Part shown: one piece after another, positions 3,260 to 62,247 of the stretch
Position numbering within the stretch: the stretch's first letter is position 1
How the letters are laid out: each line of letters starts with the position of its first letter
NCBI GenBank assembly: GCA_963701085.1
Contig: OY969561.1
Location: 929,858 to 993,857, forward strand
Source of the DNA: an uncultured bacterium
Lineage (GTDB): Bacteria; Babelota; Babeliae; Babelales; Vermiphilaceae
Direction: 5' to 3'
Length of the DNA: 64,000 nucleotides
Notes under the pieces: model-generated
Databases searched by the model: none
The model's input: only the letters and a program-made list of their open reading frames with translations
Told to the model about the DNA's origin: nothing
Translations under genes and position numbers: made by a program

Positions 3260-4482
3260 TTATTTTTTTGATGCAACAATCTTCTGTATAATTTGATCTA
3301 AACGCTCTTCATATTTTTCCATTGATTTATGATCTACATCAGTATATCTAAATATTTTAACCCCAGACGCAGGATTTAATAAAATATCATCTGTTAAAAG
3401 CAAACGCGCCTGAGCATAATTAATACCATGTAAATCTTCTGGCTTATTACAATAAATCTTCAAATACGCATTGATACTATAATCACCCTTTTCAATATTC
3501 TGATCATTCTTTTAAATAAAGGATCTTTTTCCTGTTCTTTTTTAAATTTATCTTTTAATGCTGCCAATGCCATCATATTTCCCGATTTACCTGGTTCACC
3601 TTTATATTTTTTGCGTTTTACATTAGTACGAACCCAGTAGAAAATTCACCGTCAGCAGGAATACCGGTTATCCATGCTAAGTAAGCAATATCATCCACTA
3701 TGTTTTTGGGAACAAATATTTGCAAAAGAGACTCATGCTTTAAGAACACTCCATCAAATCCCATTAATTCATCAATATACGTATAAGATAGTCCAAACTC
3801 ATCCATTATAGCTTCATAATATGAGCGCTCCAGTTCCACATGAGACTTTTCTTCCATAAAATACGTCCATGTTGCTTCATTCTCAAAACCGGCATTTCCA
3901 AACGAGGTTATATTTGTTGACAACAACATCCCTGAGCTTCATTCTGATCATCAACAAGACCATGTGCTCTCAATTCTTTCACTAAAAACTCTTTTGCTTT
4001 GAGCTTACTCAACCCTTAGCCCTCAAAAGAACAAACTCTCCACTCTTTTGTGTTTTTGATCAATTAAAATGATGAGATAATCTTGTTAATGCATCTTGCC
4101 AAACCATCCATTTTTGAGAAGTCCCGTGATAAAACGCCCAATGGGTATTTTTAAATTCAGTCTCTTTTGTAATTACCCGAGAAATAATATCAAAATAAGG
4201 CACCACTTGCTTTGAATAATTTTCTTGAATAAATCTCTTTATTTTCTTCAACTGTAAATGCGCTTGTGTCGATTATATAAATCAGAGTAATTTGAGATTG
4301 AAGCTCTGTCAGATTTACCTCTTGAACTCCTGCATGCCGCGCTACCGTCTCTCGTTCTTTTTCTAATGCCATTTGCACAACAGGATTTTTAAGTTGTTTT
4401 GACAATACAGGTACAGTAGTCAAAAATGAGATAATAACAAAAAAAATTTTTATATACCAAATCTGTTATTTACGTTAAACAT
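3260..4482 (-). pseudogene. family A paralogue, decayed (at least 4 frame breaks)
   Basis: Fragments 3260-3463, 3618-3929, 4060-4251 and 4190-4423 are colinear with the 169-1518 protein (WAFYHGTSQKWMVWQDALTRL vs YVFYHCADNAWRVPQDLYTRL). The ATG at 4482-4480 overlaps the stop of the next copy (ATGTTTAA). Confidence 0.6.
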
Positions 4483-5776
4483 TTTCTTCTCCTTCTTTTT
4501 CAACGATTATTTCATCAATTATCTCATTTAACCGTTTATAGTATTCTTTTAATCTTTCCTTTGATACCGTTGAATAACGGTAAAACTGTACACCTGCTGC
4601 TGGATTCAATAAAACATCTGATAAAAAATAAGACGTACTTGTGTATTATTTATATCTGGCATTTCCCATGGTTTATTACGATAAGCTTTTAAATATCCAT
4701 TCACACTAAAATCACCCGCCTGAACACTTTCTATAAGATCTTTAAATAAAGGGTTTTTTTATGTTGCCTTTTTTAAATTGCTTCGCCAAGTCCTCCAGTT
4801 GCCATTCAGCAACGTGCTTACCCTCTTTATGTGTTAGTAGTTTTTTTTCATATACTTTTTTATCCAATCAATTGATTCTTCATGCAAAGGCATACCTTTT
4901 GACCATGACTGGTAACCAATATCATCAATTCTATTTTGCGGGACAAATATTTGAAGCAAGGTATTTTCTTTTGTGTCATACAATTCACAAGAGACAGTAA
5001 TTCATCAATATATTTATGAGTTAACCCAAATTTATCCATCATTTTTTCATAAATTTTGCGATCAGGAACTTTATGTCCTATATCTTTTAAAAAATAATAC
5101 CATCTACATGAAGTACATCTGTACCATTATTACCAAACAGTGATACGTTTACTGATAAAAGAATTCCCTTTAAATCTCCCATATCATTAACAATCCCATT
5201 TTTCTTTAATTCATCAATCAAAAATTCTTTGGCATTACGTTCAGGCAAATCCTAAATCTTAAAAAGGAAAAAGTCTTTCCAATTTTTTTTCCTGACGGAT
5301 TTTGCCGAATATATAACTGCGTATATACATCTGCGCAAGACGCCATTCATTATCAGTCGTATGATAAAAGGCATAATGATTGCTTTTCAATTCTTGTTCT
5401 TTTACCAAGCAATCAGAAATAATATTAAGATAAGGAATATATATCGGGAACTTGACTCTTCTGTAAGTAAATCTTTTATACGCGTAAGCTGTAAAAAGGC
5501 TTCTGTTTGCGTAAATTGATCTGATGTTCCTTGTGCCTGAACAACTCGCACTGGGGCTACCTGCGGTACTTTTGGTGCTATAGGAGCACCTATAAAAGGT
5601 TTTGATTCTATTTGAGGAATTTTTACAACAGGCTTTACTGCCCCCGACTGCACCTGTTTACCCTCAACCCCACCAAAAAACGATAGCAAGGCTACAAATA
5701 AACTTATCCGGCCCTGCCTTAACAAATTTTTAATTAACTGCTTCCGACTACCCTCTCCCCCTTTTAAATGCATCAC
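4475..5776 (-). pseudogene. family A paralogue, decayed
   Basis: N-terminal fragment 5402-5776 (leader LFVALLSFFGG; FTQTEAFLQLTRIKDLL vs FTQSEAHMSLLDIKKLI). Internal fragment 4860-5042 (MMDKFGLTHKYIDELLSLVN vs IFDKFELPHKYIKELMSLVN). C-terminal remnant ...NPAAGVQFYRYS...EIIVEKEGEENV* ends at 4475-4477. Confidence 0.55.
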
Positions 5777-5909: not shown

Positions 5910-6713
5910 TTATAAAAAATTTGTGGATATAACAAGCCGATTAATATCATCAACGGTTTTAATTGCCATCAAATCTGTCGCCTGAGACAGATCAAATGGC
6001 CCTATTGCGGTACGAGCGAGCTGATAGGTCGTCGCACAGCTGCCTGCCCTACTTTGCTCTCCGCTCATCCTGCGTGCCCGAAGAAGCCTTGGCGAAGTCG
6101 GGAGCTCTACGAGCTCCGAAGGGCAAGCGCGCACAGCAATATCATTAACCAGCGTACGAATGTACGTTCCATGAGAAACGCGTGCTTGAATAGTAAATTG
6201 CGGAGATTCATAGGATAAAAGCTGCAGTTCATATAATTGAACGGTCCTGCGCTTACTTTCAGCTATGCTTTGCAGCTCTTGCGTACTCATCACATTGTGA
6301 CGAGCCAATGCATATAATCGAGCGCCTTGATGCTTAAGGGCAGAATACAGCGGTGGAATTTGCTCATATGATGAGCCAAAAGACAGTATCGAAACTCTTA
6401 TTTCTTCTTCTGAAGGGATGTGTGCGCATGTTGCAACTATTGTACCTGTATGATCAAGCGTATCAGTTAACTCACCACACTTGCCGGTTGCAACGTACGT
6501 TTTTTCCATCACCATGATACGGGAAAGAAGCCGCGTTGCTTCTCGTCCCAAGGCAACAATAAGAAGTCCAGATGCAAAAGGATCCAGGGTTCCTGCATGA
6601 CCGATTTTAATTTTTTGCTTTAAAATACGTTTAAGATACCCAATGCATCCGTAGGAACTCATGCCGGTGGGTTTGTTGATGAGGAGAAAACCAGAAGAAA
6701 CAATATTATTCAT
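5910..6713 (-). CDS. truB: tRNA pseudouridine-55 synthase TruB, carrying an in-frame repeat-derived insert
   Basis: GHAGTLDPFASGLL catalytic-Asp motif, GTYIRTL motif, TruB-like length and order. The C-terminal third contains an extra GC-rich segment of about 32 aa (see repeat 6030-6136). Confidence 0.9.
   Translation of the reverse strand: MNNIVSSGFLLINKPTGMSSYGCIGYLKRILKQKIKIGHAGTLDPFASGLLIVALGREATRLLSRIMVMEKTYVATGKCGELTDTLDHTGTIVATCAHIPSEEEIRVSILSFGSSYEQIPPLYSALKHQGARLYALARHNVMSTQELQSIAESKRRTVQLYELQLLSYESPQFTIQARVSHGTYIRTLVNDIAVRACPSELVELPTSPRLLRARRMSGEQSRAGSCATTYQLARTAIGPFDLSQATDLMAIKTVDDINRLVISTNFL
6030..6136. repeat. half copy of palindromic repeat family RE-A embedded in frame in truB
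   Basis: CCGCTCATCCTGCGTGCCCGAAGAAGCCTTGGCGAAGTCGGGAGCTC...TCCGAAGGGCA aligns with the right arm of the intergenic element at 6821-6877 (CCGCTCGCCCTGAGTGTCCTACGAAGCCTTGACGTAGTAGGATGTATCGAAGGGTA). Local GC is far above the surrounding gene. Confidence 0.6.
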
Positions 6714-6730
6714 AATACAAGTTACAGTTA

Positions 6731-6883
6731 TTCCGCACCCTTCGATACACCCCTTCGGGGCACTCAGGGCGAGCGGAGGGGAAAATTTTTTGAATTTTTA
6801 AATTTGAAAACTATCTTCTCCCGCTCGCCCTGAGTGTCCTACGAAGCCTTGACGTAGTAGGATGTATCGAAGGGTATGCGGGA
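6731..6883. repeat. palindromic repeat RE-A, full copy (two inverted arms around an AT-rich centre)
   Basis: Left arm CCGCACCCTTCGATACACCCCTTCGGGGCACTCAGGGCGAGCGG. Right arm CCGCTCGCCCTGAGTGTCC...GTATCGAAGGGTATGCGGGA. Lies 9 nt 3' of the tyrS stop. Confidence 0.8.
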
Positions 6884-8019: not shown

Positions 8020-8105
8020 TGAATCTTCAGAATAAATATTTACCGTTCCTGAGCGTAAAAGCTCTAGCGTCTTTTTCTATTTTATCCATAATACTTTTTT
8101 ACCTA

Positions 8106-9822: not shown

Positions 9823-12321
9823 ATGGAAAAAAGATACGACCATCAATTATGTGAAGCGGCGGCGCAACAAAAATGGGAAACGGATAAAACCTATGCAATG
9901 GAAAACAATCCAGGACCATTATACAGCATAGATACCCCCCCTCCAACAGTTTCTGGGACACTGCACATTGGTCATATATTTTCTTATACACAAACCGATA
10001 TCATTGCCCGCTACAAACGCATAAACGGTTACTCTGTTTTTTATCCCTTTGGATTTGATGATAACGGCCTTCCAACAGAACGTTATGTGGAAAAAAAACG
10101 CAATGTTCGCGGGCATGAAATGTCCCGTTCAGAATTTATCAGCTCTATGCATCCAAGAATCTCATGAAGCCGCTGAAATATTTAAAAAATTATGGCAAAA
10201 AATGGGACTTTCTGCTGATTGGAGTGAGACATATTCAACCATATCAGATGATTCCCGCAAAATATCGCAAGAATCATTCATTGAACTGTTTAATAAAAAT
10301 TATATCTACCGCAAACAAGAACCAGCTTTATATTGCACAACCTGCCGCACATCCGTTGCACAAGCAGAACTTGATGATTTGCAAGACTTACCATCATTTT
10401 TCAACGGATATTATTTTTAAAGATAGTGATGGCAATGATCTGATTATCGCAACAACACGCCCTGAACTACTTCCTGCATGCGTTGCAGTACTCTATAACC
10501 CTGATGATGTTCGTTACACACATTTACATGGTAAAAAAGCAATTGTGCCTCTTTTTGGTCAAACTGTGCCTTTTATTACCTGATGATTTAGTTGCAATCG
10601 ATAAAGGCAGCGGCCTTGTGATGGTGTGTACCTTTGGTGATAAAACAGACATCATTTGGTACAAAAAACACAACTTACCCTATCGCCATGTTATTGGTCT
10701 TCGATGGCAAATGCACTGATAATGCTGGTTTTTTACAAGGTCTTAAAGTTGCAGATGCACGTGTAAAGGTTATTGAAACATTACGTGAACAAAATCTTTT
10801 ACCACGGCAACAACCAATTACGCATTCAGTTAACGTTCATGAACGGTGCAAAAAAGAAATTGAATACACTATTTTGCCACAATGGTTTAGTCAGTATTTT
10901 ACCATACAAAGACAAATTTTTAGAAATGGCTGACAGCATCAATTGGTACCCAACATTTATGAAATCTCGCTACAATGATTGGGTAGAAAATTTAGCATGG
11001 GATTGGGGAATATCTCGCCAACGCTTTTATGGCATTCCATTCCCTGCATGGCACTGCCAAGATTGCGGCAAAATCTTACTTGCGCATCCTTAATCAACTG
11101 CCTGTTGATCCACAAGAAACACCGCATTCCGGCCCTTGCCCTGATTGCGGTAAAAGCAATATCAAACCTGATACTGATGTTATGGATACATGGAATACAT
11201 CATCATTAACGCCGTACATTTGTTATGACGTCTTTCAAAAAATTAATAAAGTTCGTCTTACAAGTCCTTTCGAAGAAGACGCCCTGCGTAGCTGGGGCTC
11301 AAATGTCCATGCGCCCACAAGCACATGATATCATCCGCACCTGGGCATTCGATACCATCGTAAAATCATGGATGCACAACGGAATCGCTCCATGGAAAGA
11401 TATTGTTATTTCTGGTCACGTGCTCGCTGATAGTAAAGAGAAACTTTCAAAATCAAAAAGCAATGCGAGGCATGGATCCGGTGACTTATTACTCCAACAA
11501 TATCCTGCCGATGCAATTAGATACTGGACAACTTCAGGAAGACTTGGTCAAGACATGATGTTCTCAGAAGAACAACTTAAAATTGGCCAAAAATTAATCA
11601 CCAAGATGTGGAATGTTTTTCTTTTTGCACAACCACACTTGGTAAATTTTGTAAAACACCGCATACTACACCTAATCAAATTGGCGCGATTAACAAATGG
11701 CTCTTGCACACGATCTCTGCATGCTTTGAAAAATATCAGCAATACCTTGAACAACATGAATTTGGTTTAGCGCTCAACATGATCGAACAATTTTTCTGGA
11801 GCAACTTCTGCGACAATTACCTTGAACTGATTAAAAATCAATTATTTAATCCTGAACAATATAAAGCTGAATGGAAGTGGAAGCAACGCGTTGGACATTG
11901 TACCATGCAGGATTGCGCATACTGCAACTGTATTCACCATATTTGCCGCATATCACGGAAACAATCTATCATGAACTATATGCGCAACATGAAGCCCTAC
12001 AATCTATTCATCAAACACGTTACCAGGATGTACAAACTCCGTATGTATTTGCAGCTGAAGCAGAAATTATTAATGCCGTTATCGCAATTGCAACACAGGT
12101 ACGTAAATTAAAATCAGAAAAACAACTATCACTCAAAACACCGCTGACCACCATGAATGTTTTTACTCAAACACAATCAGTGACAATCAACAATTGAACA
12201 ACATGATCAGTTGATCCGTGGCATTACGCAGGCAGTGTCTGTTGTCGATGCAGCTCATAGTGGCCAAATTTCACGCTTCACCGAAAAAGATGGCGCATGG
12301 CATGCTGAGGTGGTGCTCTGA
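9823..12321 (+). pseudogene. valS: valyl-tRNA synthetase, 10 frame changes as sequenced
   Basis: Eleven colinear fragments: PPPTVSGTLHIGH (HIGH), [74 protein letters not shown] (KMSKS), ...AWHAEVVL* with TGA at 12319-12321. Frames (start mod 3) run 1,2,0,1,2,0,1,2,1,0,1. Confidence 0.85.
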
Positions 12322-12325
12322 GTAA

Positions 12326-12460
12326 TCCTTCGACACATCCTTCGCATAAAGCTTCGGGGACACTCAGGATGAGCGGCTAGAGAGTAAAATTCAATATTTT
12401 TATAAAATTTATTTACTCCTTCGCTCGTCCTGAGTGCCCCGCAGGGGTGTATCGAAGGAT
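12326..12460. repeat. palindromic repeat RE-A, full copy
   Basis: ATCCTTCGACACATCC...CGGGGACACTCAGGATGAGCGG, AT-rich centre, then TCGCTCGTCCTGAGTGCCCCGCAGGGGTGTATCGAAGGAT. Starts 5 nt after the valS stop. The ORF-track ORF 12255-12524 (-) is just this element. Confidence 0.8.
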
Positions 12461-12546
12461 AAAAAGCCTTTATATAGCTTGTTTTTTTTACAATTTCAGG
12501 CATACTAAAAAATAAAGTCCTCAATTAAAAATAGAGAGATTATGCA

Positions 12547-15605: not shown

Positions 15606-15648
15606 AAATTTTATCCTTTTTTTTATCTATCCACACAAGGTTACCTTC

Positions 15649-16372
15649 ATGAAATCGATCATTGAACAAGCATCATCAATAATAAAAGCTATTGAAAAAG
15701 CATGGAATCAAGCAGAAAAACCAAAAGAATTTTCAATCAAAGTCTTTGAACAAGAAGAAAGAAACTTTTTTGGCATGGCTACCAAGCCAGCCAAAATTGG
15801 TATTTTTTTTAGTGACAAGCCTGTTATTTATGAAAAACCTACATCAAGACCTCGTCAAGAGATAAAAGAATGTCGCCCCTCCTTTACTAAGACTGAAAAC
15901 AAACCTGTTGTAAAACCAGCACCACAACCTGCACACAAAGCGCAGCCAACTCAACATAAGCCTTCTGCACCGCAGACAAAACCTGATACAGTTCAACAAC
16001 GCACTTCCTCCTTCGCCAAGGCTACGGCGGACAGGTCAGACAAGGCAAAAACCCACGGAACAAACTCACGTAGCGGCTCCTCAAGCGGAAAAGGCACAGC
16101 GAATACCTACTACATGGAATGATACAATGATCGCTGCAACACACAATTGGCTCAAAAAAACATTATCCCTCATGGGTTTAGGATCTATTGATTTCAGCTC
16201 AGAAATTGCTGGCAAAAATTTAAAGCTTACCTTTAATACGCCATTAGTTGCTGACCCAATGCATGAAAAACAACTATTTCGCAGCTTTGCGCACTTGATT
16301 ATGTCTTCTTTGCGCAATCAATACAAACAAGAAATTAAGGATCTTAAAGTGATCCTGATTCGCCCCGAGTAA
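15649..16372 (+). pseudogene. jag: Jag/KhpB-like RNA-binding protein (Jag_N plus KH-like domain), frame change in the linker
   Basis: MKSIIEQASSIIKAIEKAWNQAEKPKEFSIKVFEQEERNFFGMATKPAKIGIFF fits the Jag_N pattern. 16127-16372 gives the KH-like part. Both frames are open across 16000-16120, where a GC-rich repeat-like segment sits. Located just upstream of mnmE, as is common. Confidence 0.6.
16002..16095. repeat. repeat family RE-C segment inside the jag linker
   Basis: CACTTCCTCCTTCGCCAAGGCTACGGCGGACAGGTCAG resembles the intergenic copy CACTTCCTCCGTCGCTAAAGCTATGGAGGACACAGCAG at 43184-43221. Further weak similarity continues downstream (..AGCGGAAAAGG vs ..AGCGGAAGAG). Confidence 0.5.
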
Positions 16373-21952: not shown

Positions 21953-22003
21953 TAAACTAGTATCATTATATGCGCTCCCAAAGTCGTGAAAATCTTAATC
22001 TTT

Positions 22004-22148
22004 CCTGCGCTCGCCCTGAACTTGTTGAAGGGTCTCTTTGAGCGCTCGAGGATATCATTTATTCCCCAATTTCCACTTCGTTCCAATTGGGGTCCCCAGT
22101 CGAAAGGAAGTGAAGATGGGGTTAAACAAGCTCAGGACGAGCGCGGAG
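22004..22148. repeat. palindromic repeat RE-B with an inserted internal module
   Basis: Left arm CCTGCGCTCGCCCTGAACTTGTTGAAGGG (22004-22032), right arm CAAGCTCAGGACGAGCGCGG (22127-22146). The internal GGTCCCCAGTCGAAAGGAAGTGAAGATGGGGTTA recurs at 43236-43268. Confidence 0.7.
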
Positions 22149-22188
22149 AGTCGAAAAAAAAATAACATACTTTTTCAAGGACCATTTT

Positions 22189-23705
22189 ATGGCTGAACAT
22201 ACTACCTCTATACTCGATAAATACCCTGCTTATGAAACAACCATCGGCATTGAAGTTCACGTACAACTCATGACGAACACAAAAATATTTTGCACATGCC
22301 AAAACACCGTAGCAAAAGATCCCAATTCACACATATGCCAGATTTGTGCTGGATATCCCGGCGCAATGCCAATGCTCAATAAAAAAGTGGTTGATTTTGC
22401 AATTTTAGCAGGACTTGGAACCAACTGCACCATCAACCAACAATCAACCTTTGATCGTAAACATTATTTTTATCCTGATTTACCAAAAAACTTCCAAATC
22501 ACGCAACAAGCTGAACCAATTTGTACCGATGGCTATGTGCCAATTAGACTGGAAGATGGCAGCATAAAAAAAATTAATTTAATTCGCATTCATATCGAAG
22601 AAGATGCGGGTAAAAATATTCACTCAAGCTATAGCAACGAAAGCTTTGTTGATTTAAACCGTGCCGGCACACCGCTGTTGGAAATTGTCAGTCACCCTGA
22701 TATTTCATCAACGTATGAAGTTCGCACGTACTTAAAAACATTGCGCTCAATTGTGCAATATTTGGGCATCTGCACGGGTAATATGGATGAGGGTTCATTC
22801 CGTGCGGATACCAATATCTCCGTGCGCAAAAAAGGACAAAAAGAGTTGGGCACCAAATGTGAACTCAAAAACATCAACTCATTCAAATTTATTTCCGATG
22901 CAACGGAACATGAATTGGAACGTCAAATTAAAATTCTTGAAGCTGGCGGAAAAGTACGCTCAGAAACGCGCCTCTGGGATTCAAAAGAAAAAACTACTAT
23001 CATGATGCGCTCAAAAGAAGAAACTGCGGATTATCGTTTTTTCCAGGAGCCCGATTTACCAATTATTTTTATTGATGATGCACGCCTTGAAAAGGCGAAA
23101 TAAAATATGCCAGAGCTTCCACTCGCCAAATTTGAACGCTTTACCAAAGAACTTGGCCTCAGTGAATACGAAGCGGATATTTTAATAGAAGATATTGATC
23201 TTGCAAACTATTTTGATGCAGCAAAAAAATATACCGCGAGCAAAAATCTTATTCATTGGATTTTACGTGATTTGATGGGTTACTTCAAAGAACAAAAAAT
23301 CTCATTATCAGAATGTAAAGTAACGCCAGAACGTCTTGGCAAAATAGTTGATTTGATTGATCAGGTGTTATCAACAGCCCTACCGCAAAAGAAGTTCTTG
23401 TTTTTGTTGCACAAGAAAATAAAGATCCGATGATTATTATTGAAGAAAAAGGCCTCAAGCAAATTGGTTCTGTTGATGAGCTTGAAGCTATGGTCAAAGA
23501 AATTATTGCGGCAAATCCTGGTCAAACGGCAGAATATCGCTCAGGAAAAGAAAAATTATTTGGTTTCTTTGTTGGGCAAATGATGCAGAAGACAAAAGGC
23601 AAAGGCAACCCGCAACTTATTAATGATCTTGATCAAGAAGCATTTGAATACCCCGCGCTCGTCCTGAACTTGTTGAAGGATGTCTTCGAGCGCAATAAAT
23701 TATAA
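22189..23705 (+). pseudogene. gatB: Asp/Glu-tRNA amidotransferase subunit B, one in-frame TAA plus at least one frame change as sequenced
   Basis: GatB N-terminal core (YETTIGIEVHVQL, CQICAGYPGAMP, RIHIEEDAGK, NRAGTPLLEIV). TAA at 23101-23103 is in frame with 23107-23433 (..LEKAK*NMPELPLAKFERF). A missing G at about 23368 (GATCAGGTG) restores ..LIDQGVINSPTAKEVLVFVAQENKDPMIIIEEKGL.. into 23430-23705. Confidence 0.85.
23653..23692. repeat. half copy of RE-B forming the last codons of gatB
   Basis: CCGCGCTCGTCCTGAACTTGTTGAAGGATGTCTTCGAGCGC, translated as ..YPALVLNLLKDVFERNKL* in the gatB frame as sequenced. Confidence 0.6.
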
Positions 23706-27783: not shown

Positions 27784-27840
27784 TAATAATTCTTTCTATG
27801 AATAATCTATATTTATAATCTATCCCTAAACTAATTTTTT

Positions 27841-27921
27841 CCTGCGCTCGCCCTGAACGTGTTGAAGGGTTTTCTTCGAGCGCTCGAGGATATTCTTCAA
27901 CAAGTTCAGAACGAGCGCGGG
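27841..27921. repeat. palindromic repeat RE-B, full copy
   Basis: CCTGCGCTCGCCCTGAACGTGTTGAAGGG...CTTCAACAAGTTCAGAACGAGCGCGGG. Lies 40 nt 3' of the glycosylase stop. Confidence 0.75.
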
Positions 27922-27960
27922 AGACCAAAACGTTTTTACAACTCTAGAAATAAACTCTAT

Positions 27961-28856: not shown

Positions 28857-30566
28857 TTATCTGCCTGGCTCAAACTCAACTTGAATTCTTCTGCCTTTAA
28901 ACGTTGTATCTTTTAACGTTTTAACAATAGCTTGCGCTTTTTTGTTATCATCAACGGTAAAGAATGAACGTGTATTTTGCATTGAAACACGTGATACACA
29001 TGATCCATCAACAGCAGATGTTGTAGTGATAAACTTAATCAACGCTTCTTTGTTCATGTAGTCAATTTTTCCTACATTAATAAAGAGTCGCGATTCATCT
29101 CTGCCATTACTGCTAAATCGGCTGCCTGATGAATAATTATCAGCACTACCATTACTTCCTCTGCCTCTGACTTCTCCTCTATTCCATCCCGCTCGTCCTG
29201 CTGAGCTTGCTGAAGAATCTCTATCTCTATACGCATCATAGCTACTTGCAGATGTGTTTAGATTTGGCGATTTTTTGTAATGAAGCAACATTTCACTACA
29301 CTGTAATGAAAATATACGTTCAATAATTTCTTCTTTAGTCAGCGCTTGCAATGATTGCTGAACTGCTGGTAAATAAGGTTTAATAACATCATTAACCGGA
29401 GTTTCAATCAATTTTTGTGCAAAATGATCTAACTGTTTTTGACACAATTGATCACCAGTTGGAACCTGGATAGGTTTAATAACAAGATTCAATTGCTGTT
29501 CTATCATTTTAATTTTACGCAATGATGAACCAATAATAATGGATACACCAGATTTACCCGCACGTGCTGTACGACCACTTCTATGAGTGTAGTTTTCAAT
29601 ATCATCTGGTAAATTGCAATGCAATACATGAGTAACGCCTTCAACGTCAATACCACGCGCCGCAACGTCGGTTGCAACGAGCACTTGTATTTTCTTGTCT
29701 CTGAACTTTTTCATAACTGCATCACGTTGTGGCTGAGACAAATCTCCGTGCAATGCATCGGAAATATAACCAGCGCTAATCAACTGTGAACTCATTTCTT
29801 GTGCATCACGCTTAGTACGACAAAATACGATACCAAACATATCAGGATAAAGATCAATAAAACGTCTTACCGCGCCATAAATATCAGCACTTCTGACGAT
29901 ACAATATTGATGTTCAATATTAGTTGCACCACTATTACGTGAACCTACCGTAATTTGTAACGGATTGCTCATGTATGTATGTGCTATTTTTTCAATTTTA
30001 GGTTGCATGGTTGCAGAAAACAACCATATTTTCTTTTCTTTTGGCGTAGACTTTAAAATTTCATCGATATCTTCTTGGAAGCCCATATCCAACATTTGGT
30101 CAGCTTCATCAAGAACAACACGACCAATATTACTTAAATTAATGGTTCCACGATTAATGTGATCAATCAATCTACCCGGTGTTCCAACAATAATATGCGC
30201 ACCGCGCCTAATTGCTGTTACCTGAGTTCTGATATCCGCACCACCATAGACCGCAACAACGTTAACACCACTGACATATTTTGCGTAGGATGTTAACTCT
30301 TTTGTAATTTGCAAACAAAGCTCACGCGTTGGGCAGATCACGAGTCCCTGAGTTTTACCATCCATAACAGCCGAAATCAATGGCAATCCAAACGCAGCCG
30401 TTTTACCGGTACCTGTTTGTGCCAAACCTATAAGATCCCTGTCTCCCTTTAAAAGAAGAGGAATCGCTTTTTCCTGAATTGCTGTTGGTTGGGTAAAACC
30501 TAATTCAGAAACCGCTTTCACTAAACGTTCATCAACACCCAATGCTTGTATACTCATACGTCTCAC
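28857..30566 (-). CDS. DEAD-box ATP-dependent RNA helicase with a DbpA-type C-terminal RNA-binding domain
   Basis: Q motif GFTQPTAIQ, AQTGTGKT, DEAD (VLDEADQM), SAT, HRSGRTARAG. R/G/S-rich linker, then LFINVGKIDYMNKEALIKFI...GRRIQVE. Confidence 0.9.
   Translation of the reverse strand: MRRMSIQALGVDERLVKAVSELGFTQPTAIQEKAIPLLLKGDRDLIGLAQTGTGKTAAFGLPLISAVMDGKTQGLVICPTRELCLQITKELTSYAKYVSGVNVVAVYGGADIRTQVTAIRRGAHIIVGTPGRLIDHINRGTINLSNIGRVVLDEADQMLDMGFQEDIDEILKSTPKEKKIWLFSATMQPKIEKIAHTYMSNPLQITVGSRNSGATNIEHQYCIVRSADIYGAVRRFIDLYPDMFGIVFCRTKRDAQEMSSQLISAGYISDALHGDLSQPQRDAVMKKFRDKKIQVLVATDVAARGIDVEGVTHVLHCNLPDDIENYTHRSGRTARAGKSGVSIIIGSSLRKIKMIEQQLNLVIKPIQVPTGDQLCQKQLDHFAQKLIETPVNDVIKPYLPAVQQSLQALTKEEIIERIFSLQCSEMLLHYKKSPNLNTSASSYDAYRDRDSSASSAGRAGWNRGEVRGRGSNGSADNYSSGSRFSSNGRDESRLFINVGKIDYMNKEALIKFITTTSAVDGSCVSRVSMQNTRSFFTVDDNKKAQAIVKTLKDTTFKGRRIQVEFEPGR
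29188..29217. repeat. diverged RE-B-like segment inside the helicase linker
   Basis: CCGCTCGTCCTGCTGAGCTTGCTGAAGAAT vs RE-B core GCGCTCGTCCTGAACTTGTTGAAGGAT. Encodes ..DSSASSAGRAGW.. on the minus strand. Confidence 0.4.
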
Positions 30567-40551: not shown

Positions 40552-40755
40552 TTGCTCTTCATTTTTTAAACAAATCAACACAATACTAAAAATTAAATTT
40601 TAAATAGCAGATTTCAATAGTCTCAAATATTCTTTAGAACTTTCATACACCATCTCTGAAATAAAATGCAGAAATGGTGTATTGTTATTTTTATATGCTT
40701 TTTTGACCTACTTCAAAAAAACAATTACCATTAAAATAAAGAATAAAGCGCTTAA

Positions 40756-40840
40756 CCCTTCAACAAGTTCAGGGTGAGCGCAACAAAGAACTGAATTTGT
40801 GTTTACTACTGATCCTGTCGAAGTATCAGAGTGAGCACAA
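40756..40840. repeat. RE-B half copy followed by a degenerate RE-A-like arm
   Basis: CCCTTCAACAAGTTCAGGGTGAGCGC (40756-40781), then ATCCTGTCGAAGTATCAGAGTGAGCAC (about 40812-40838). Confidence 0.5.
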
Positions 40841-43149: not shown

Positions 43150-43154
43150 ATGAC

Positions 43155-43362
43155 CTCCTTCGATACATTTTTGCAAGCAAAAACACTTCCTCCGTCGCTA
43201 AAGCTATGGAGGACACAGCAGGATGATTCTTTTGGGTACCCATCGAAAGGAACTGAAGATGGGTTTAATGAGCGGAAGAGAAAAGACGTTTGAGAATTTC
43301 CCCCACCCGCTCGCCCTGAGTGTTCTACGGAGTATAACGTAGTAGAATGTATCGAAGGGTGC
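43155..43362. repeat. composite repeat: RE-A termini enclosing RE-C and the module shared with 22098-22125
   Basis: CCTCCTTCGATACAT (left end) ... CACTTCCTCCGTCGCTAAAGCTATGGAGGACACAGCAGG ... GGTACCCATCGAAAGGAACTGAAGATGGGTTTAATGAGCGG ... CCGCTCGCCCTGAGTGTTCTACGGAGTATAACGTAGTAGAATGTATCGAAGGGTGCG (right end, 11 nt from the stop at 43373). Confidence 0.7.
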
Positions 43363-43372
43363 GAAATAAAAA

Positions 43373-43948
43373 TTACTTCCTCACCACAACCAACCCAGCA
43401 TCAAAACTCATCTGAAAGTTATCATCAGCAACACGGGTAAAACTAACGTGAGAAATGGTAATCATAGAACGAGAATTTTTTATTGTTTCCAAAAACGTCA
43501 TTAATTTTTGCATTGAACCAGCAACATCAAAATGCGCTAAATCTTTGGAGTACCATGTTTTATCTTTGGTATTGCATGATCCATACACATTCAATGTAAG
43601 ACCGGCCTTTGCAATGCTATCCAACACAAATAACATGCGTTGATGGCAATGCTCTTCTCTTTTGTCAGAAGCTATTGCACGATCATCTATATTTTTTTTA
43701 CTTGATTCAACAACCGTTAATAATTCCTTACCACTTTTGTGTAACTGAACACTGTCATCAGATTTTTTTTGCAATGTCATACACTCAGATTGCAACAACG
43801 CAATATGCCCAAGCAGCGGATAATAAACCCCATAGATACCAACAACAACAAATGCACTGAATGAAAAAAGCATCGCTAAATAACAACGCTTTAAACTTGT
43901 ATGTGCAATATAATTATAGATCGCATTATTACGCGCAATAAAATACAT
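43373..43948 (-). CDS. PilO-like pilus/secretion assembly protein (bitopic)
   Basis: Short cytoplasmic N-terminus, one TM (AMLFSFSAFVVVGIYGVYY), a coiled coil, then a C-terminal core with PilO-like pattern (..IAKAGLTLN......FDVAGSMQKLMTFLETIKNSRSMITISHVSF..). Assignment is by architecture only. Confidence 0.4.
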   Translation of the reverse strand: MYFIARNNAIYNYIAHTSLKRCYLAMLFSFSAFVVVGIYGVYYPLLGHIALLQSECMTLQKKSDDSVQLHKSGKELLTVVESSKKNIDDRAIASDKREEHCHQRMLFVLDSIAKAGLTLNVYGSCNTKDKTWYSKDLAHFDVAGSMQKLMTFLETIKNSRSMITISHVSFTRVADDNFQMSFDAGLVVVRK

Positions 43949-43975
43949 TACATGTCTCCTTTTTATTACAATAAC

Positions 43976-44022
43976 TTCCTCCGCTCATCCTGAGTGCCCC
44001 GTTAGGGGTGTATCGAAGGACT
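43976..44022. repeat. RE-A half copy
   Basis: CTTCCTCCGCTCATCCTGAGTGCCCCGTTAGGGGTGTATCGAAGGACTCC, 9 nt 3' of the stop at 44031. Confidence 0.65.
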
Positions 44023-44030
44023 CCTTATCT

Positions 44031-52073: not shown

Positions 52074-52097
52074 ATATAGTTTAATTCATAAAGATTT

Positions 52098-52173
52098 TCT
52101 GCGCTCGTCCTGAACTTGTTGAAGGATGTCCTCGAGCGCTCGAAGACATCCTTCAACAAGTTCAGGACGAGCG
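52098..52173. repeat. palindromic repeat RE-B, near-perfect 76-bp palindrome
   Basis: GCGCTCGTCCTGAACTTGTTGAAGGATGTC - CTCGAGCGCTCGAA - GACATCCTTCAACAAGTTCAGGACGAGCGC (30-bp perfect arms), 25 nt after the stop at 52073. Confidence 0.85.
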
Positions 52174-52223
52174 CGATAAGATATTTTAAAAAAAATTTAA
52201 TGAATATTTCTATAGGAATTACT

Positions 52224-54899: not shown

Positions 54900-54977
54900 A
54901 AACTCCTTTGGAAAAAATTAAAATGTTATCATTTTATAGCATAGGTATTGGAAAAAGTCATCGTTAAAAACACAAAA

Positions 54978-54996
54978 ATCCAACAGATTGTTGGAT
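54978..54996 (-). terminator. hairpin terminator after 55039-55944
   Basis: ATCCAACAGATTGTTGGAT palindrome. On the minus strand it is followed by TTTTGTGTTTTT. Confidence 0.45.
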
Positions 54997-55038
54997 TCTT
55001 AACCATGCTCTCAATGGACTTTTTTTTATCAAATACTT

Positions 55039-55944
55039 CTATTTTTGAACAATCTCATATTCCATTTCTTGCAACAAAGGAATTTTCACTAACTCAGTTC
55101 GATATTTTTTGTCTTCAGGTGTTTCATATAACCAATAAAGAACACTTTTTTTCAGACCAAAATAAAACAATATAGTTGTCACCACCATAGTTGTCACCTC
55201 TGAAAAATCTGGTACTGGCCCACCACCTAAAATCTCCCATAAAATAGCTTGAGGTGGAATTGAAAGAAGAGATGCCATGCTTGCCGAGGAATATGCAAAA
55301 AAATTCTTAGCCTCTTCATCATCCAAGCTCCACCTAGCCCCGCATATTGGTTGATTATGTAGACTACTTTCCATTGTTTCACCATACTTTTGAACAATTT
55401 TTTTTCTTATTGATAAAGGCAAATTCAAAATATTTTGAGACATTTTTTGTGAGAAATCTTTATCTAATCCTTCTATTATGATCCGCTCTCTACCTTCTAC
55501 ATCATGCAACACATACCATAATCCTTGTTTCTGTTCTTTTTTTAAATACAAAATATCAAATGTAGTAAGATTAAAAACTTGTTGGCTTTCCTGTATTAAT
55601 AGTTCATCAGGCGAAATCATTTCTGCATAACCTGCATAACAATACTCTAATATTTTATTTGTTACATCGCGTGGAATGCCTACATCTTGCATTGTTTTTG
55701 CCCAAAGCAATTCATCACAAAAAGAACGCTTTAATTGATCCCTATCTTTTTTGGGTATAAAATATGGATATTGAGGCCTATTTCCTCCAGAAATGATTTT
55801 ATCCAAACAACCTGTACGATATTCCCAATCCCCATAAACTTCCATATCCTGCATTTCTTTTGGATCCCTCGCCCTTTTCATCGCTTGTAAAGAAATGGAA
55901 ATAGTCACCAAGCCTATTATTAAAAAATTAACATGATGCATCAT
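55039..55944 (-). CDS. family D membrane-anchored secreted protein
   Basis: Leader MMHHVNFLIIGLVTISISLQAMK. GDWEYRTG, YPYFIPKKDRDQ, GLWYVLHDV, IIEGLDKDFSQKMSQNILNLPLSIRKKIVQKYG. C-terminal YWLYETPEDKKYRTELVKIPLLQEMEYEIVQK. Confidence 0.6.
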   Translation of the reverse strand: MMHHVNFLIIGLVTISISLQAMKRARDPKEMQDMEVYGDWEYRTGCLDKIISGGNRPQYPYFIPKKDRDQLKRSFCDELLWAKTMQDVGIPRDVTNKILEYCYAGYAEMISPDELLIQESQQVFNLTTFDILYLKKEQKQGLWYVLHDVEGRERIIIEGLDKDFSQKMSQNILNLPLSIRKKIVQKYGETMESSLHNQPICGARWSLDDEEAKNFFAYSSASMASLLSIPPQAILWEILGGGPVPDFSEVTTMVVTTILFYFGLKKSVLYWLYETPEDKKYRTELVKIPLLQEMEYEIVQK

Positions 55945-56018
55945 AAAAAACCTTACATCCTAAACTGTTGCATATAATGTAAAATGTTCCCAATGGACTT
56001 TTTTTTTATCAAATACTT

Positions 56019-56900
56019 CTATTTTTGAACAATCTCACATTCCATTTCTTGCAACAAAGGAATTTTCACTAAATTAGTTCGATATCTTTTTTCTTCAGGT
56101 GTTTCATATAACCAATACAGAATACTTTTGTTCAGGCAACAATAAAACAATATAATTGCAGAACAACGTTGTTCTGCCCCAAAACCTAAAGCATCCCATA
56201 AACAACTTTGAAGTGGAATTGAAAAAAAAGATACCGCTTTTGCCAAGCAAGATGCAAAAGAAGCCTTATTTTCTTCATCATCCAAGCACCCCCTAGCCCC
56301 GAATCTTGGCGTATTATGTAGACTACTCTCCATTGTTTTACCATACTTATGAACAATTTTTTTTCTTATTGATAAAGGCAAACTCAAAATATTTTGAGAC
56401 ATTTTTTGTGAAAAATCTTTATCTAATCCTTCTATTGTAATCTGATTTCTATCCCCTACATCATGCAACACATACCATAATGCTTGTTTCTGCTCTTTTT
56501 TTAAACACAAAACATCAAGTGTAGTAAGATTAAAAACTTGTTGGCTTTTCTGTATTAATGGTTCATTAGACAAAATCATTTCTACATAACAATACTCTAG
56601 TATTTTATTTGTTACATCGCGTGGAATACCTACATCTTGCATTTTTTTTGCCAAAAGCAATTCATTGCAAAAAGAACGCTTTGATTGATCCCTATCTTTT
56701 TCGGGTACAAAATATGGATATCGAGGCCTATTTCTTCCAACAGTAAATTGATCCAAAACACCTGTATGATATTCCCAATCCCCATAAGATAGTCTTCTTG
56801 CTTCTATAGCCAGCATTTCTTCTCTCGTTCTTTTCATCGCTTGCAAAGAAGTGGAAATAGTCACTAAGCCTATTATTAAAAAATTAACATGTTGCATCAT
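56019..56900 (-). CDS. family D membrane-anchored secreted protein (recent duplicate of 55039-55944)
   Basis: Same architecture. By analogy with its twin the start is MMQHVNFLIIG (56900), not the ORF-track start at 56927. Confidence 0.6.
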   Translation of the reverse strand: MMQHVNFLIIGLVTISTSLQAMKRTREEMLAIEARRLSYGDWEYHTGVLDQFTVGRNRPRYPYFVPEKDRDQSKRSFCNELLLAKKMQDVGIPRDVTNKILEYCYVEMILSNEPLIQKSQQVFNLTTLDVLCLKKEQKQALWYVLHDVGDRNQITIEGLDKDFSQKMSQNILSLPLSIRKKIVHKYGKTMESSLHNTPRFGARGCLDDEENKASFASCLAKAVSFFSIPLQSCLWDALGFGAEQRCSAIILFYCCLNKSILYWLYETPEEKRYRTNLVKIPLLQEMECEIVQK

Positions 56901-56957
56901 AAAGAACCTCAAAAATATAGTAACCATTCTATTAATATCACGAATTATATCATATTT

Positions 56958-57049
56958 TAGTAAACATTAAAAAATTACACATCAATGGCTTTTTAATTGG
57001 CAGTGCCAGTACTAATTTTGAGAGCTTTGCGGAAATTATCACACAATAA
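56958..57049 (+). pseudogene. relic 3' end of tpiA
   Basis: 56978-57049 reads HINGFLIGSASTNFESFAEIITQ* vs the tpiA end PINGFLIGGASTDFEQFKKIITL* (17 of 23 identical). Nucleotide similarity extends back to about 56958 (AACATTAAAAAATTACACATCAATGG vs AACATTAAAAAAAATACCGCCAATCAATGG). Confidence 0.7.
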
Positions 57050-57290
57050 TCCAACAGCCTGTTGAATTATTAAACATTCTCCCAATCGTTTTTTTTAAGC
57101 ATATTTTATGCAAAAAGTCTCACAAACTGTGAGACTTTTAAACATGCTGTTAATCGCTACTTTTGATAATATTTATATATAGAGTCCCACAAGCTGTGGG
57201 ACTCTTAAATATGCTTCCAATCATTATTTTAAACATATTTATTCAATTATCCCACAGCTTGTAGGACAAATAAATATTCTCCCAATCGTT
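57050..57290 (+). repeat. four tandem units of about 66 bp, each a hairpin plus a conserved tail
   Basis: Unit starts are about 57050, 57117, 57182 and 57249. Hairpins are TCCAACAGCCTGTTGA, GTCTCACAAACTGTGAGAC, AGTCCCACAAGCTGTGGGACT, ATCCCACAGCTTGTAGGAC. Tails are TTAAACATTCTCCCAATCG, TTAAACATGCTGTTAATCG, TTAAATATGCTTCCAATCA, TAAATATTCTCCCAATCG. Related single copies at 54978-55020 and about 55985-56000. Confidence 0.7.
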
Positions 57291-57468
57291 ATTGACATAT
57301 GCTATGATAATAAAAAAATTTCATTCTAAGGACACCGCTAATAATCACCAAAAAAGAAACCTGCACCAGCAAAAAAACCAACCAAAAAAACTAAAAAACC
57401 CTAATTTTATAAAAATTTTAAACATGCTATACTCACACTAATCACTACAATAATAAGAAGGAAAATAT

Positions 57469-61071: not shown

Positions 61072-62064
61072 ATGATACATAGCTCAGTTCCAACACAAGC
61101 AGTTATTGACCAGATAAAATTAGAAAGTAATCGATTTAATGATCTACCAACAGAAATTAGTAAAGTTATTGTTGGGCAAAATCATATCATTGATTTAATT
61201 GTTAATGCAATTTTGTGCAAAGGCCACATTCTCCTAGAAGGTGTTCCTGGCGTTGCAAAAACAACTATGATTAAAGCGGTTGCATCTGCACTTGGTCTAA
61301 CATTTAATAGAATTCAATTTACGCCAGATTTATTACCATCAGATCTTATTGGCACCTTAATTTTTAATCCAAAAACACATGATTTTGAAACAAAAAAAGG
61401 TCCTATTTTTGCAAACCTCATTCTTGCGGATGAAATTAACCGTGCTCCTGCAAAAGTTCAAGCTGCACTTCTTGAAGCAATGCAAGAACAACAAGTCACC
61501 ATTGGTTCCCAAACATATAAGCTTGATGCGCCATTTTTAGTATTTGCAACACAAAATCCTGTTGAACAAGAAGGCACTTACCGTTTGCCTGAAGCGCAAC
61601 TCGATCGATTTTTGTTTAAAATTCATGTTGATTACCCTACTATATTTGAAGAACTTGAAATTTTAAATCGCTCAAATGCTACCAATGCTCTTACGCAAGT
61701 ATTAACCAAAAATGATATTCTTGAGTCACAACAATTAACACAAGCTATTTATGTTGATGAAAAAATAAAACAATACATTCTTGCGATTGTATTTGCAACA
61801 CGTAAACCAGCTGATTATAAATTACAAGATCTTAGTTCATATATTAGTTATGGCGTTTCACCACGAGCAACTCTTGCTCTGTATCATGCGGCAAAAACAC
61901 ATGCTTTCTTGGCTAAACGGCATTATGTAACACCAGATGATGTTAAAGCTGTCTGCTATCCAGCCCTCAGACATAGAATGCATTTGACCTATGAAGCTGA
62001 AGCAGACAATATTACCGCGGATGCAATTATCAAAAAAATCATCAATACCATTCCAGCACCATAA
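61072..62064 (+). CDS. MoxR-family AAA+ ATPase
   Basis: GVPGVAKT, FNRIQFTPDLLPSDLIGT, LADEINRAPAKVQAALLEAMQE.QVTIG, ATQNP.EQEGTY.LPEAQLDRF. Confidence 0.9.
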   Translation: MIHSSVPTQAVIDQIKLESNRFNDLPTEISKVIVGQNHIIDLIVNAILCKGHILLEGVPGVAKTTMIKAVASALGLTFNRIQFTPDLLPSDLIGTLIFNPKTHDFETKKGPIFANLILADEINRAPAKVQAALLEAMQEQQVTIGSQTYKLDAPFLVFATQNPVEQEGTYRLPEAQLDRFLFKIHVDYPTIFEELEILNRSNATNALTQVLTKNDILESQQLTQAIYVDEKIKQYILAIVFATRKPADYKLQDLSSYISYGVSPRATLALYHAAKTHAFLAKRHYVTPDDVKAVCYPALRHRMHLTYEAEADNITADAIIKKIINTIPAP

Positions 62065-62070
62065 CTCTTT

Positions 62071-62138
62071 GCGCTCATCCTGAACTTGTTGAAGGATTAA
62101 GCGCGCTTTAATTCTTCAACAAGTTCAGAATGAGCGCG
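62071..62138. repeat. palindromic repeat RE-B, full copy
   Basis: GCGCTCATCCTGAACTTGTTGAAGGATT...AATTCTTCAACAAGTTCAGAATGAGCGC, 7 nt after the moxR stop. Confidence 0.8.
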
Positions 62139-62247
62139 GTAGGAATTTTTAATCTTAGTAAAAAATTCATCTGTTGGTATACTTGACAACGATAAGACAA
62201 GAGCGTTATTGTGAAAAAAGTAAAAAAAATAATGCAAGGAATTCTCA

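Follow-up and report, generated by a model that had tools for sequence, protein, structure and literature searches.

The tRNA pseudouridine-55 synthase gene (truB) of an uncultured bacterium of the Vermiphilaceae (Babelota; Babelales) contains a GC-rich segment that is read in frame with the rest of the gene, and the question raised by this locus is where the segment came from and what it means for the encoded enzyme. The gene lies in a stretch of 64,000 nucleotides (GenBank assembly GCA_963701085.1, contig OY969561.1, positions 929,858 to 993,857 of the forward strand), hereafter the window, in whose numbering positions are given. An initial annotation, made from the sequence alone, had described the segment as a repeat-derived insert of 30–35 amino acids at 6030–6136 and had likened it to the Rickettsia palindromic elements (RPEs). 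We show here that the truB segment is one copy of a hairpin repeat that is dispersed, GC-rich and modular in build. The explanation that we favour overall, with a probability of roughly 80%, is an in-frame, RPE-like insertion of a mobile hairpin repeat into truB. The host gene and the insert are as follows.

5910–6713, minus strand: truB (tRNA pseudouridine-55 synthase), the host of the insert; an open reading frame (ORF) of 267 aa, supported by Pfam, PDB and an AlphaFold model.
6048–6128, minus strand: in-frame insert of 81 nt, codons 196–222 (ACPSELVELPTSPRLLRARRMSGEQSR), delimited by the empty site of the relative L204 and by the junctions common to L001, L002 and L003.

The truB product matches the Pfam domain TruB_N (E=6.7e-41) and solved TruB structures in PDB (1e-30). 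Around the insert it reads ...GTYIRTLVNDIAV-RACPSELVELPTSPRLLRARRMSGEQS-RAGSCATTYQLARTAIGPF..., in agreement with the reading quoted in the initial annotation. The insert occupies codon phase 0 and adds 27 codons between the Arg and Ala codons of NDIAV-R|AG-SCATT; in context the protein is NDIAV-RACPSELVELPTSPRLLRARRMSGEQS-RAGSCATTYQL, the corresponding stretch of Thermotoga TruB is DIGYKLGCGATAVEL, and the predicted junction-spanning peptide is ...NDIAVRACPSELVELPTSPR... The canonical orientation of the repeat is that of the plus strand, i.e., antisense to truB. Because of microhomology at the junctions, the boundaries can be placed within 2–5 nt. The insert lies within the longest GC-rich (62%) stretch of the window, which otherwise has 30–40% GC, and stop codons are absent from four of the six frames in which the 81 nt can be read. 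The presence and GC-rich nature of the insert were thus described correctly at the outset, whereas the extent assigned to it was too large, since the comparison with L204 gives 81 nt at 6048–6128.

The similarity of the insert to an arm of the intergenic palindrome nearby, which had also been proposed, proved significant in both pairwise and profile comparisons. In a local alignment, the insert (6048–6128) and the intergenic arm (6815–6882) shared 35 of 45 bases with a score of 24, which none of 2000 shuffles reached (mean 7.7, maximum 16). The motif GAAGCCTTGNCGNAGT occurs three times in the window against 0.2 expected. An nhmmer profile of six intergenic type-A units (described below), from which the truB copy was left out, matched truB at 6057–6097 (E=2.8e-4) as its top non-training match. 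A hidden Markov model (HMM) of the hairpin module, trained on one intergenic copy from the window and seven copies in relatives, again without the truB copy, found its best match in the window at truB 6071–6104 (E=3.5e-8).

The repeats of the window take three related forms, type A, type B and the hairpin module, and the boxes of the family are a left CGCTC..CCTG.GTG, a hairpin module with the loop GAAGCCTTGGCGAAG, and a right CGAAGG. Type A consists of CCGCTC-R-N-CCT GAGTG, a variable hairpin, and TGTATCGA AGG-N. Type B is GCGCTCGYCCTGAACTTGTTGAAGGRT, with GTTCGTCCTGAGCTTGTCGAAGGATACGAAC as the version in relatives. In the hairpin module, the stem varies and the loop GAAGCCTTGGCGAAG is conserved; the module is found as the hairpin of type A, nested in type B, or alone adjoining tRNA genes. 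In 30 type-A units from the window and other genomes, a two-helix model left 92.7% of cells paired, compared with 75.9% in shuffled sequences (0 of 500 reached the observed value) and 41–62% in slid controls; compensatory changes occurred in all five pairs of the inner helix (P2), and the unpaired boxes GAGTG and TGTATCGA were invariant or nearly so. A covarying stem with constant unpaired boxes is the mark of a hairpin that a protein reads in single-stranded form. Single intergenic units span approximately 50–75 nt, and genic inserts 30–87 nt. The fold stability of single units is modestly above that of shuffles (z -2 to -2.8), and the intergenic doublet at 6733–6880 is predicted to form a strong cruciform (z=-10.5). 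Rfam at the gathering threshold returned one tRNA only, and in E-value mode it returned generic miRNA-precursor hairpins on the doublet without a family match. The parts of the truB copy and the other intergenic copies in the window are listed below.

6061–6076, plus strand: left core box of the truB copy, CCGCTCATCCTGCGTG (family consensus CCGCTCRYCCTGAGTG), inside the type-A HMM match at 6057–6097.
6077–6102, plus strand: hairpin module of the truB copy, CCCGA-AGAAGCCTTGGCGAAG-TCGGG, with variable stem and conserved loop, inside the module HMM match at 6071–6104 (E=3.5e-8).
6102–6123, plus strand: GAGCTC-TAC-GAGCTC mini-palindrome (6102–6116) and right box CGAAGGG (6117–6123), from the sequence and a predicted hairpin.
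6729–6880: intergenic doublet between tyrS and truB, two inverted type-A units (6729–6788 minus, 6809–6880 plus) around an AT-rich spacer (nhmmer E=6.9e-16 and 1.6e-19).
12318–12466: two intergenic type-A units (12318–12385 minus, 12410–12466 plus; nhmmer E=1e-17 and 6.8e-15).
22001–22151: type-B units (GCGCTCGYCCTGAACTTGTTGAAGGRT) at 22001–22044 plus and 22113–22151 minus (type-B units, E 8e-16 to 4e-8).
23648–23692, 27838–27924 (pair), 40749–40787, 52094–52181 (pair) and 62064–62143 (pair): further intergenic type-B units (E 8e-16 to 4e-8).
43154–44028: three type-A units (43154–43290 minus, with a nested 39-nt module; 43296–43368 plus; 43970–44028 plus) around the ORF at 43373–43948.

The 39-nt module TTGGGGTCCCCAGTCGAAAGGAAGTGAAGATGGGGTTAA is nested within repeat units at 22086–22125 and 43231–43269 (35 of 39 bases identical), and the module at 43225 interrupts CAGGATGA|ATGAGCGG. 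The 21-mer GAAGCCTTGGCGAAGTCGGGA of the truB hairpin module recurs unchanged in the truB insert of L006, and an intergenic copy of the same subtype as the truB copy is present in another Babeliales genome (L063, 2811–2878).

The comparison of orthologues that the initial annotation had proposed as a check showed the insert to be lineage-specific. Among the 120 best TruB homologues, all Babeliales-like, 109 have an insert-free NDIAx-RAGSCATT and 11 carry an insert at the same site; the insert is also absent from all solved TruB structures in PDB and from the closest relative found. The TruB of this relative (P0242, locus L204) is 98% identical to the window protein and belongs to the same 90% protein cluster, and its DNA is 95.7% identical in tyrS and 92.6% in truB. 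The truB site of L204 is empty, reading CGC ATA GGC, the locus is collinear with the window on both flanks of the insert, and a single base separates the tyrS stop from the truB start, both the 81-nt insert and the 176-nt doublet of the window being absent. Empty sites elsewhere read GTT CGT GCG GGT AGT (L004) and ATG CGT GCA AAT AGC (L005).

Filled sites have identical junctions, starting with GCT TGC CCT TCG and finishing with AGT AGG in every case. In these proteins the insert measures 33 nt (L002), 51 nt (L001), 81 nt (window) or 87 nt (L003), each length being a multiple of three. The 51-nt insert reads as the canonical unit TCCTTCGACGAGCTCAGGATGAGCGG, to which the 87-nt insert adds a hairpin module; removing 48 nt between two direct GAGC repeats from the window form gives the 33-nt one. 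L006 (P0019) carries a 30-nt insert one codon downstream, in the opposite orientation; because of its other position and orientation and because it consists of the hairpin module alone, we regard it as an independent event in the same loop. No target-site duplication was found when filled junctions were compared with the empty sites of L204, either in truB (GTGCGC|insert|(GC)AGGC versus GTGCGC-AT-AGGC) or in the spacer (TAAA|176 nt|ATGA versus TAAA|ATGA). The tyrS–truB junction is likewise variable: it measures 2–5 nt in L002, L003, L004 and L006, and it holds approximately 176 nt of repeats in the window, approximately 175 nt of different repeats in L001, and repeats together with a 92-aa GIY-YIG gene in L005. 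Comparison of these sites shows that the repeat family is mobile over the times that separate closely related Babeliales.

By pairwise identity, the closest relative of the window is L204, whose site is empty, while the more distant L001 is filled. A weakly resolved neighbour-joining tree (231 columns) intersperses insert-bearing and insert-free proteins. Whatever the history, several events must be assumed, whether the same bond received inserts more than once, inserts were cleanly lost more than once, or alleles recombined. The exact insert-junction pattern had no match in metagenome contigs, and a TruB profile recovered only distant relatives (at most 48% identity) from them.

The host gene is under purifying selection, with a ratio of nonsynonymous to synonymous substitution rates (dN/dS) of 0.135 between the window and L001, both filled, and 0.07–0.18 overall. 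The claim that the reading frame is kept and the TruB motifs are intact was borne out: the window protein keeps every column that is invariant in 58 TruBs, among them the catalytic Asp44 in GTLDP, and also has the TruB_N domain, the GTYIR motif and the TruB fold. An AlphaFold model based on the 58-sequence alignment had a mean predicted local distance difference test score (pLDDT) of 89.1 and a predicted template modelling score (pTM) of 0.85, and aligned with the TruB–RNA structures 1r3e and 1k8w with TM scores of 0.74–0.76. The insert was modelled between the helix at 185–195 and the strand at 227–237, with a pLDDT below 50 at residues 204–207 and 210–222, and the ten-residue blocks alongside (181–190; 231 onward) averaged 95–98. 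The modelling that the initial annotation had proposed as a check thus places the insert in a loop of low confidence, flanked by a helix and a strand that are both confident. The insert is most likely translated as a tolerated, disordered surface loop of 27 residues. Where the amino acids are identical, the insert shows codon differences less often than the remainder of truB in each of the six pairs (0–21% versus 19–47%, Fisher p 0.01–0.10), with dS between the lineages of about 1. This low codon divergence fits recent acquisition, conversion by other copies, or constraint at the nucleotide level.

TruB is not the only protein of the window that contains a repeat copy, and three of the approximately 20 units in the window are genic and in frame. 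The two others are the following.

16004–16035, minus strand: hairpin module in the linker of Jag/KhpB, translated as TSSFAKATADR (module HMM E=1.1e-5; Jag_N domain).
29190–29222, plus strand: type-B unit in the linker of a DEAD-box helicase, translated as DSSASSAGRAG (type-B HMM E=9.9e-5, the sole non-training match).

The helicase ORF (28857–30566, minus strand) has its core at residues 5–409 and the repeat copy near residue 450. The Jag linkers of Babeliales contain SFAKATEDR-, SFAKASEDK- and SDFAKASS-type peptides (SFAKATxDK-like) at varying positions. Peptide evidence alone places repeat-type sequences at two more TruB sites, ALPFDKLRVNSALATCPPKPCAKEEVG (ALPFDKLRVNS...) after residue 169 in P0102 and DFAKATSDT after residue 33 in P0077. 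The orientation of the module and the reading frame vary among the genic cases. In hypothetical proteins, the peptides VRPELVEG, FDKLRTNG and SFAKATADK are translations of the repeat family.

Relatives provide a candidate for an enzyme that acts on the repeats. In the Babeliales loci examined, we found four small GIY-YIG ORFs of 92–97 aa (in L002, L005 and L065), all directly flanked by repeats: the two L065 genes and the L005 gene have them on both sides, the L002 gene on one; two of the four have inverted copies on both sides. GIY-YIG (PF01541) is their only substantive Pfam domain, and three have a marginal, overlapping T5orf172 match. No small GIY-YIG ORF was found in approximately 100 unrelated control loci, and NCBIfam gave no match for the Babeliales GIY-YIG proteins. 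The arms of the window doublet are arranged minus/plus, as are those on either side of the L065 gene; where the ORF stands in L065, the window has a 20-nt AT-rich spacer. A repeat–gene–repeat architecture has been described for the NTS/SRM repeats and the Ssn single-domain GIY-YIG single-stranded DNA nucleases (Chenal et al. 2025, PMC11893778). Two observations were made beside these genes: the ORF upstream of a GIY-YIG gene in L065 (7116–7463) reads MLRIFYTVRPELVEGYERS... and runs through the flanking repeat, and in L002 a DDE_Tnp_1/DUF4096 transposase gene (642–1718) lies immediately upstream of the small GIY-YIG gene and tyrS–truB.

In the in-frame insertion that we favour, the insert would be transcribed and translated with truB and would form a disordered surface loop between the helix at 185–195 and the strand at 227–237, and the TruB enzyme would tolerate this added loop. 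Selection would act as a filter whose survivors are stop-free copies with multiple-of-three lengths in permissive loops or linkers, which would explain the genic copies in the Jag linker, the DEAD-box helicase linker and two other TruB loops. Less firmly, the repeats may spread as single-strand hairpin elements without target-site duplication, and small single-domain GIY-YIG nucleases might mobilise or process them in trans, as in the Ssn/NTS system. Afterwards, the copies could be remodelled by modules inserting into one another, by slippage over hairpins, or by conversion from copies elsewhere.

Several points weigh against this explanation. Translation of the insert is a prediction. The truB copy is without the invariant TGTAT box of the family, C replaces the invariant A of GAGTG, and the copy folds no better than its own shuffles (z about 0), so that it is either degenerate or hybrid; retention of a strong hairpin in truB was rejected on the same stability comparison. 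The multiple-of-three lengths come from intact predicted proteins and are hence biased. The patchy distribution on the tree appears to fit repeated site-specific gain, precise loss and allelic recombination alike. Frameshifts or a premature stop in tyrS, jag and gatB indicate that the single-base accuracy of the assembly is imperfect. The 64-kb window contains no GIY-YIG gene or other candidate mobilising enzyme, and the published SRM string HGTCWYN(0-2)YYVSBRHN(0-5)WNVSBRGN(0-2)RNCYNB has no match on either strand of the window (0.11 expected in shuffles). The nearest solved relatives of the Babeliales GIY-YIG proteins are UPF0213 proteins (1zg2, E=3e-17). On these grounds we treat the link between nuclease and repeat as an inference, and the nucleases as no more than candidate members of cd10448.

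The same evidence bears on four other explanations. That a repeat was mis-joined into truB during metagenome assembly is conceivable for a source that is apparently a single-contig metagenome-assembled genome (MAG) with indel errors. Inserts with the same junction in at least ten independent assemblies (ENA, JGI, Logan), and the collinearity of L204 on both sides, make such an artefact extremely improbable; the truB insert itself is confirmed in independent assemblies despite the single-base errors. It is no more credible that the segment is ancestral TruB sequence or an ordinary loop expansion that resembles the repeats by chance. The site is indeed variable, with A, V, M, T, L or I after the Arg in insert-free homologues, and yet the segment is missing from 109 of 120 homologues and all TruBs in PDB, the site is empty in L204, the profile matches reach E=3.5e-8 and 2.8e-4, and the versions in relatives spell the canonical repeat CCTTCGACGAGCTCAGGATGAGCGG. 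Both of the refuting conditions named in the initial annotation were thus decided in its favour.

The insert could also go untranslated, either because truB is a decaying pseudogene or because the RNA loses the segment as it would an intervening sequence; in favour stand the apparent breaks in three more housekeeping genes of the window and the fact that translation is itself deduced. We consider this very unlikely, given that the dN/dS of 0.07–0.18 extends to comparisons between insert-bearing lineages, that all invariant columns are kept, that the six length classes are all stop-free multiples of three, and that Rfam contains no intron or ribozyme match; the breaks in the other genes fall within A-rich runs or close to them, or fit assembly error in other ways. 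An insert that has been exapted, and is now kept as, for example, a regulatory mRNA or DNA hairpin or as a new interaction loop of TruB, would account for the low codon divergence in six of six pairs despite a dS of about 1, and for the 11-residue form RACPSELVERS being kept in several diverged lineages. Recent acquisition or conversion by genomic copies yields the same codon pattern, however, the closest relative L204 manages without the insert, length and content vary freely, the genic copy folds no more stably than shuffles, and the peptide is modelled as disordered; exaptation is therefore improbable in our estimation, if not as remote as the alternatives above.

The repeat core is common to several phyla. 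Multiple copies of type-A units with the invariant boxes CCCGCTCACCCTGAGTG-hairpin-TGTATCGAAGGG are present in at least two Dehalococcoidia MAGs with 67% GC (L011, L014, L044, L114, L117–L119) and, among the matches listed, in several proteobacterial or unclassified MAGs (L047, L064, L075, L018). The scan of genome contigs used a loose 16-base pattern whose listed matches were mostly chance matches in GC-rich genomes, and loci were re-screened by HMM. Among 2.9 million viral contigs there was one convincing copy, and a viral vector for the repeats was set aside for want of any further sign. A broader and distinctly tentative reading joins these observations: undescribed single-strand hairpin mobile elements, serviced by Ssn/UPF0213-type GIY-YIG nucleases, might insert and excise cleanly at the same phosphodiester bond and so make in-frame loops of many Babeliales proteins reversibly polymorphic (at three TruB sites and in the Jag and helicase linkers). 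Within this reading, the near-invariant core (CGCTC..CCTGAGTG / TGTATCGAAGG), common to Dehalococcoidia and Alphaproteobacteria MAGs, may indicate horizontal spread across phyla. If the reading is true, RPEs would be one instance of nuclease-associated hairpin repeats that remodel proteins generally.

Rickettsia provides the best-documented case of selfish palindromic repeats that have inserted in frame into working genes. RPEs are dispersed palindromic repeats that stand in frame inside Rickettsia housekeeping genes (Ogata et al. 2000, as summarised in PMC10969869). The present family resembles them as a dispersed palindrome of an obligate intracellular bacterium, found in frame in unrelated housekeeping genes with a peptide predicted to be compatible with the fold, and with both intergenic and genic copies. 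It differs in its host phylum, Dependentiae rather than Alphaproteobacteria, in its inserts of 30–87 nt, modular or nested, which fall short of the RPE unit length of about 100–150 bp, and in flanking small GIY-YIG genes in relatives, a feature absent from the RPE description. The resemblance to RPEs noted at the outset therefore holds for how the insertion works (in frame, in a gene under purifying selection, in a loop), whereas membership of the RPE family is not implied, the insert being shorter and modular and its family flanking small GIY-YIG nuclease genes in relatives. By these descriptions, we class the Babeliales repeat as probably a new family, and an RPE-like phenomenon in a new phylum.

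With the Ssn/NTS system the family shares a hairpin with conserved, oriented, unpaired flanks, many intergenic copies, repeats around a GIY-YIG-only protein (approximately 94 aa in Ssn, 92–97 aa in Babeliales) and enrichment in host-associated bacteria. In contrast, NTS are reported to be rarely genic (2%, PMC11893778), against 3 of approximately 20 in-frame genic units in the window, the window repeats do not match the SRM string, and the Babeliales nucleases, nearest to UPF0213, are only candidate kin of Ssn. Repetitive extragenic palindromes (REPs) and REPINs are similar as short GC-rich extragenic palindromes that form inverted pairs around a spacer, the doublet at 6729–6880 being REPIN-like, and in having no target-site duplication and a single-strand hairpin as the form that is likely recognised. 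Unlike REPs, the Babeliales repeats are without a constant GTAG head, with CGTC only in some left-box variants, and are partly genic, whereas REPs are extragenic by definition. No gene for a Y1 transposase (REP-associated tyrosine transposase, RAYT) was seen among the repeat-adjoining ORFs checked, which were housekeeping genes or had no Pfam match, and no search was aimed at it. Bacterial MITEs (transposable elements of the miniature inverted-repeat type) can also stand in frame inside genes, as described for ERIC, QMITE1 of Coxiella, Anabaena MITEs and Correia (review PMC10969869), and are likewise small non-autonomous repeats with occasional in-frame fusions or insertions. Classical MITEs, however, have terminal inverted repeats and the target-site duplications of DDE transposases, and no duplication was present at two Babeliales junctions. 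In the library searched, no relevant paper came up on repeats of this kind in Dependentiae or Babela, on the sequence strings of the repeats, or on any connection of GIY-YIG proteins with RPEs.

The Dependentiae case suggests that in-frame insertion may be a general consequence of the expansion of hairpin repeats in small AT-rich intracellular genomes. The truB site is a natural experiment in this respect, with empty, 33-, 51-, 81- and 87-nt alleles at identical junctions, some of them among close relatives, and this allelic series makes the mechanism of insertion and excision and the suspected role of GIY-YIG proteins directly testable. In addition, the repeats yield spurious-looking peptides (FDKLR, SFAKAT, VRPELVEG) in real proteins and hypothetical ORFs, which is relevant to the annotation of MAGs.

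The remaining observations concern other genes of the window. The jag/khpB gene is split into two ORFs, 15646–16122 (Jag_N and linker) and 16127–16372 (KH part), where all homologues are single proteins of 225–270 aa. A second frame, open from about 15860, agrees with relatives from ...RQKPTEQTHVAAPQAEKAQRIPTTWNDTM onward; the frameshift lies near an A-run at about 16030–16050, just 3' of the repeat module, and the public annotation of the source genome also has a truncated Jag product of 157 aa. The split is due to either a homopolymer assembly error or a real frameshift. At the 5' end of tyrS (about 8060–8075), one extra A relative to L204 in the run after ATGGATAAAATAG breaks the MDKIEK... 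start, and the ORF call falls to a TTG start at 8019, giving 375 aa instead of 398 aa. In gatB (22189–23650), an in-frame stop follows the GatB_N domain (304 aa), and the remainder continues in the same frame past the stop and then in another frame to about 23650. Taken together, the breaks in tyrS, jag and gatB suggest assembly indel or substitution errors, or gene decay.

Three diverged copies of one coding sequence, in blocks 61–81% identical, lie at 169–1518, 3340–3820 and 4570–5050, spaced by about 3079 and about 1230 nt; they look like paralogues, two of them shorter or fragmentary. A gene of approximately 300 aa is duplicated in tandem at 55020–55950 and 56000–56910 (ORFs 55039–55944 and 56019–56927) with 83–92% nucleotide identity, and short AT-rich hairpins, AATCCAACAG..CTGTTGGATT (54970–57296), flank the two ORFs.

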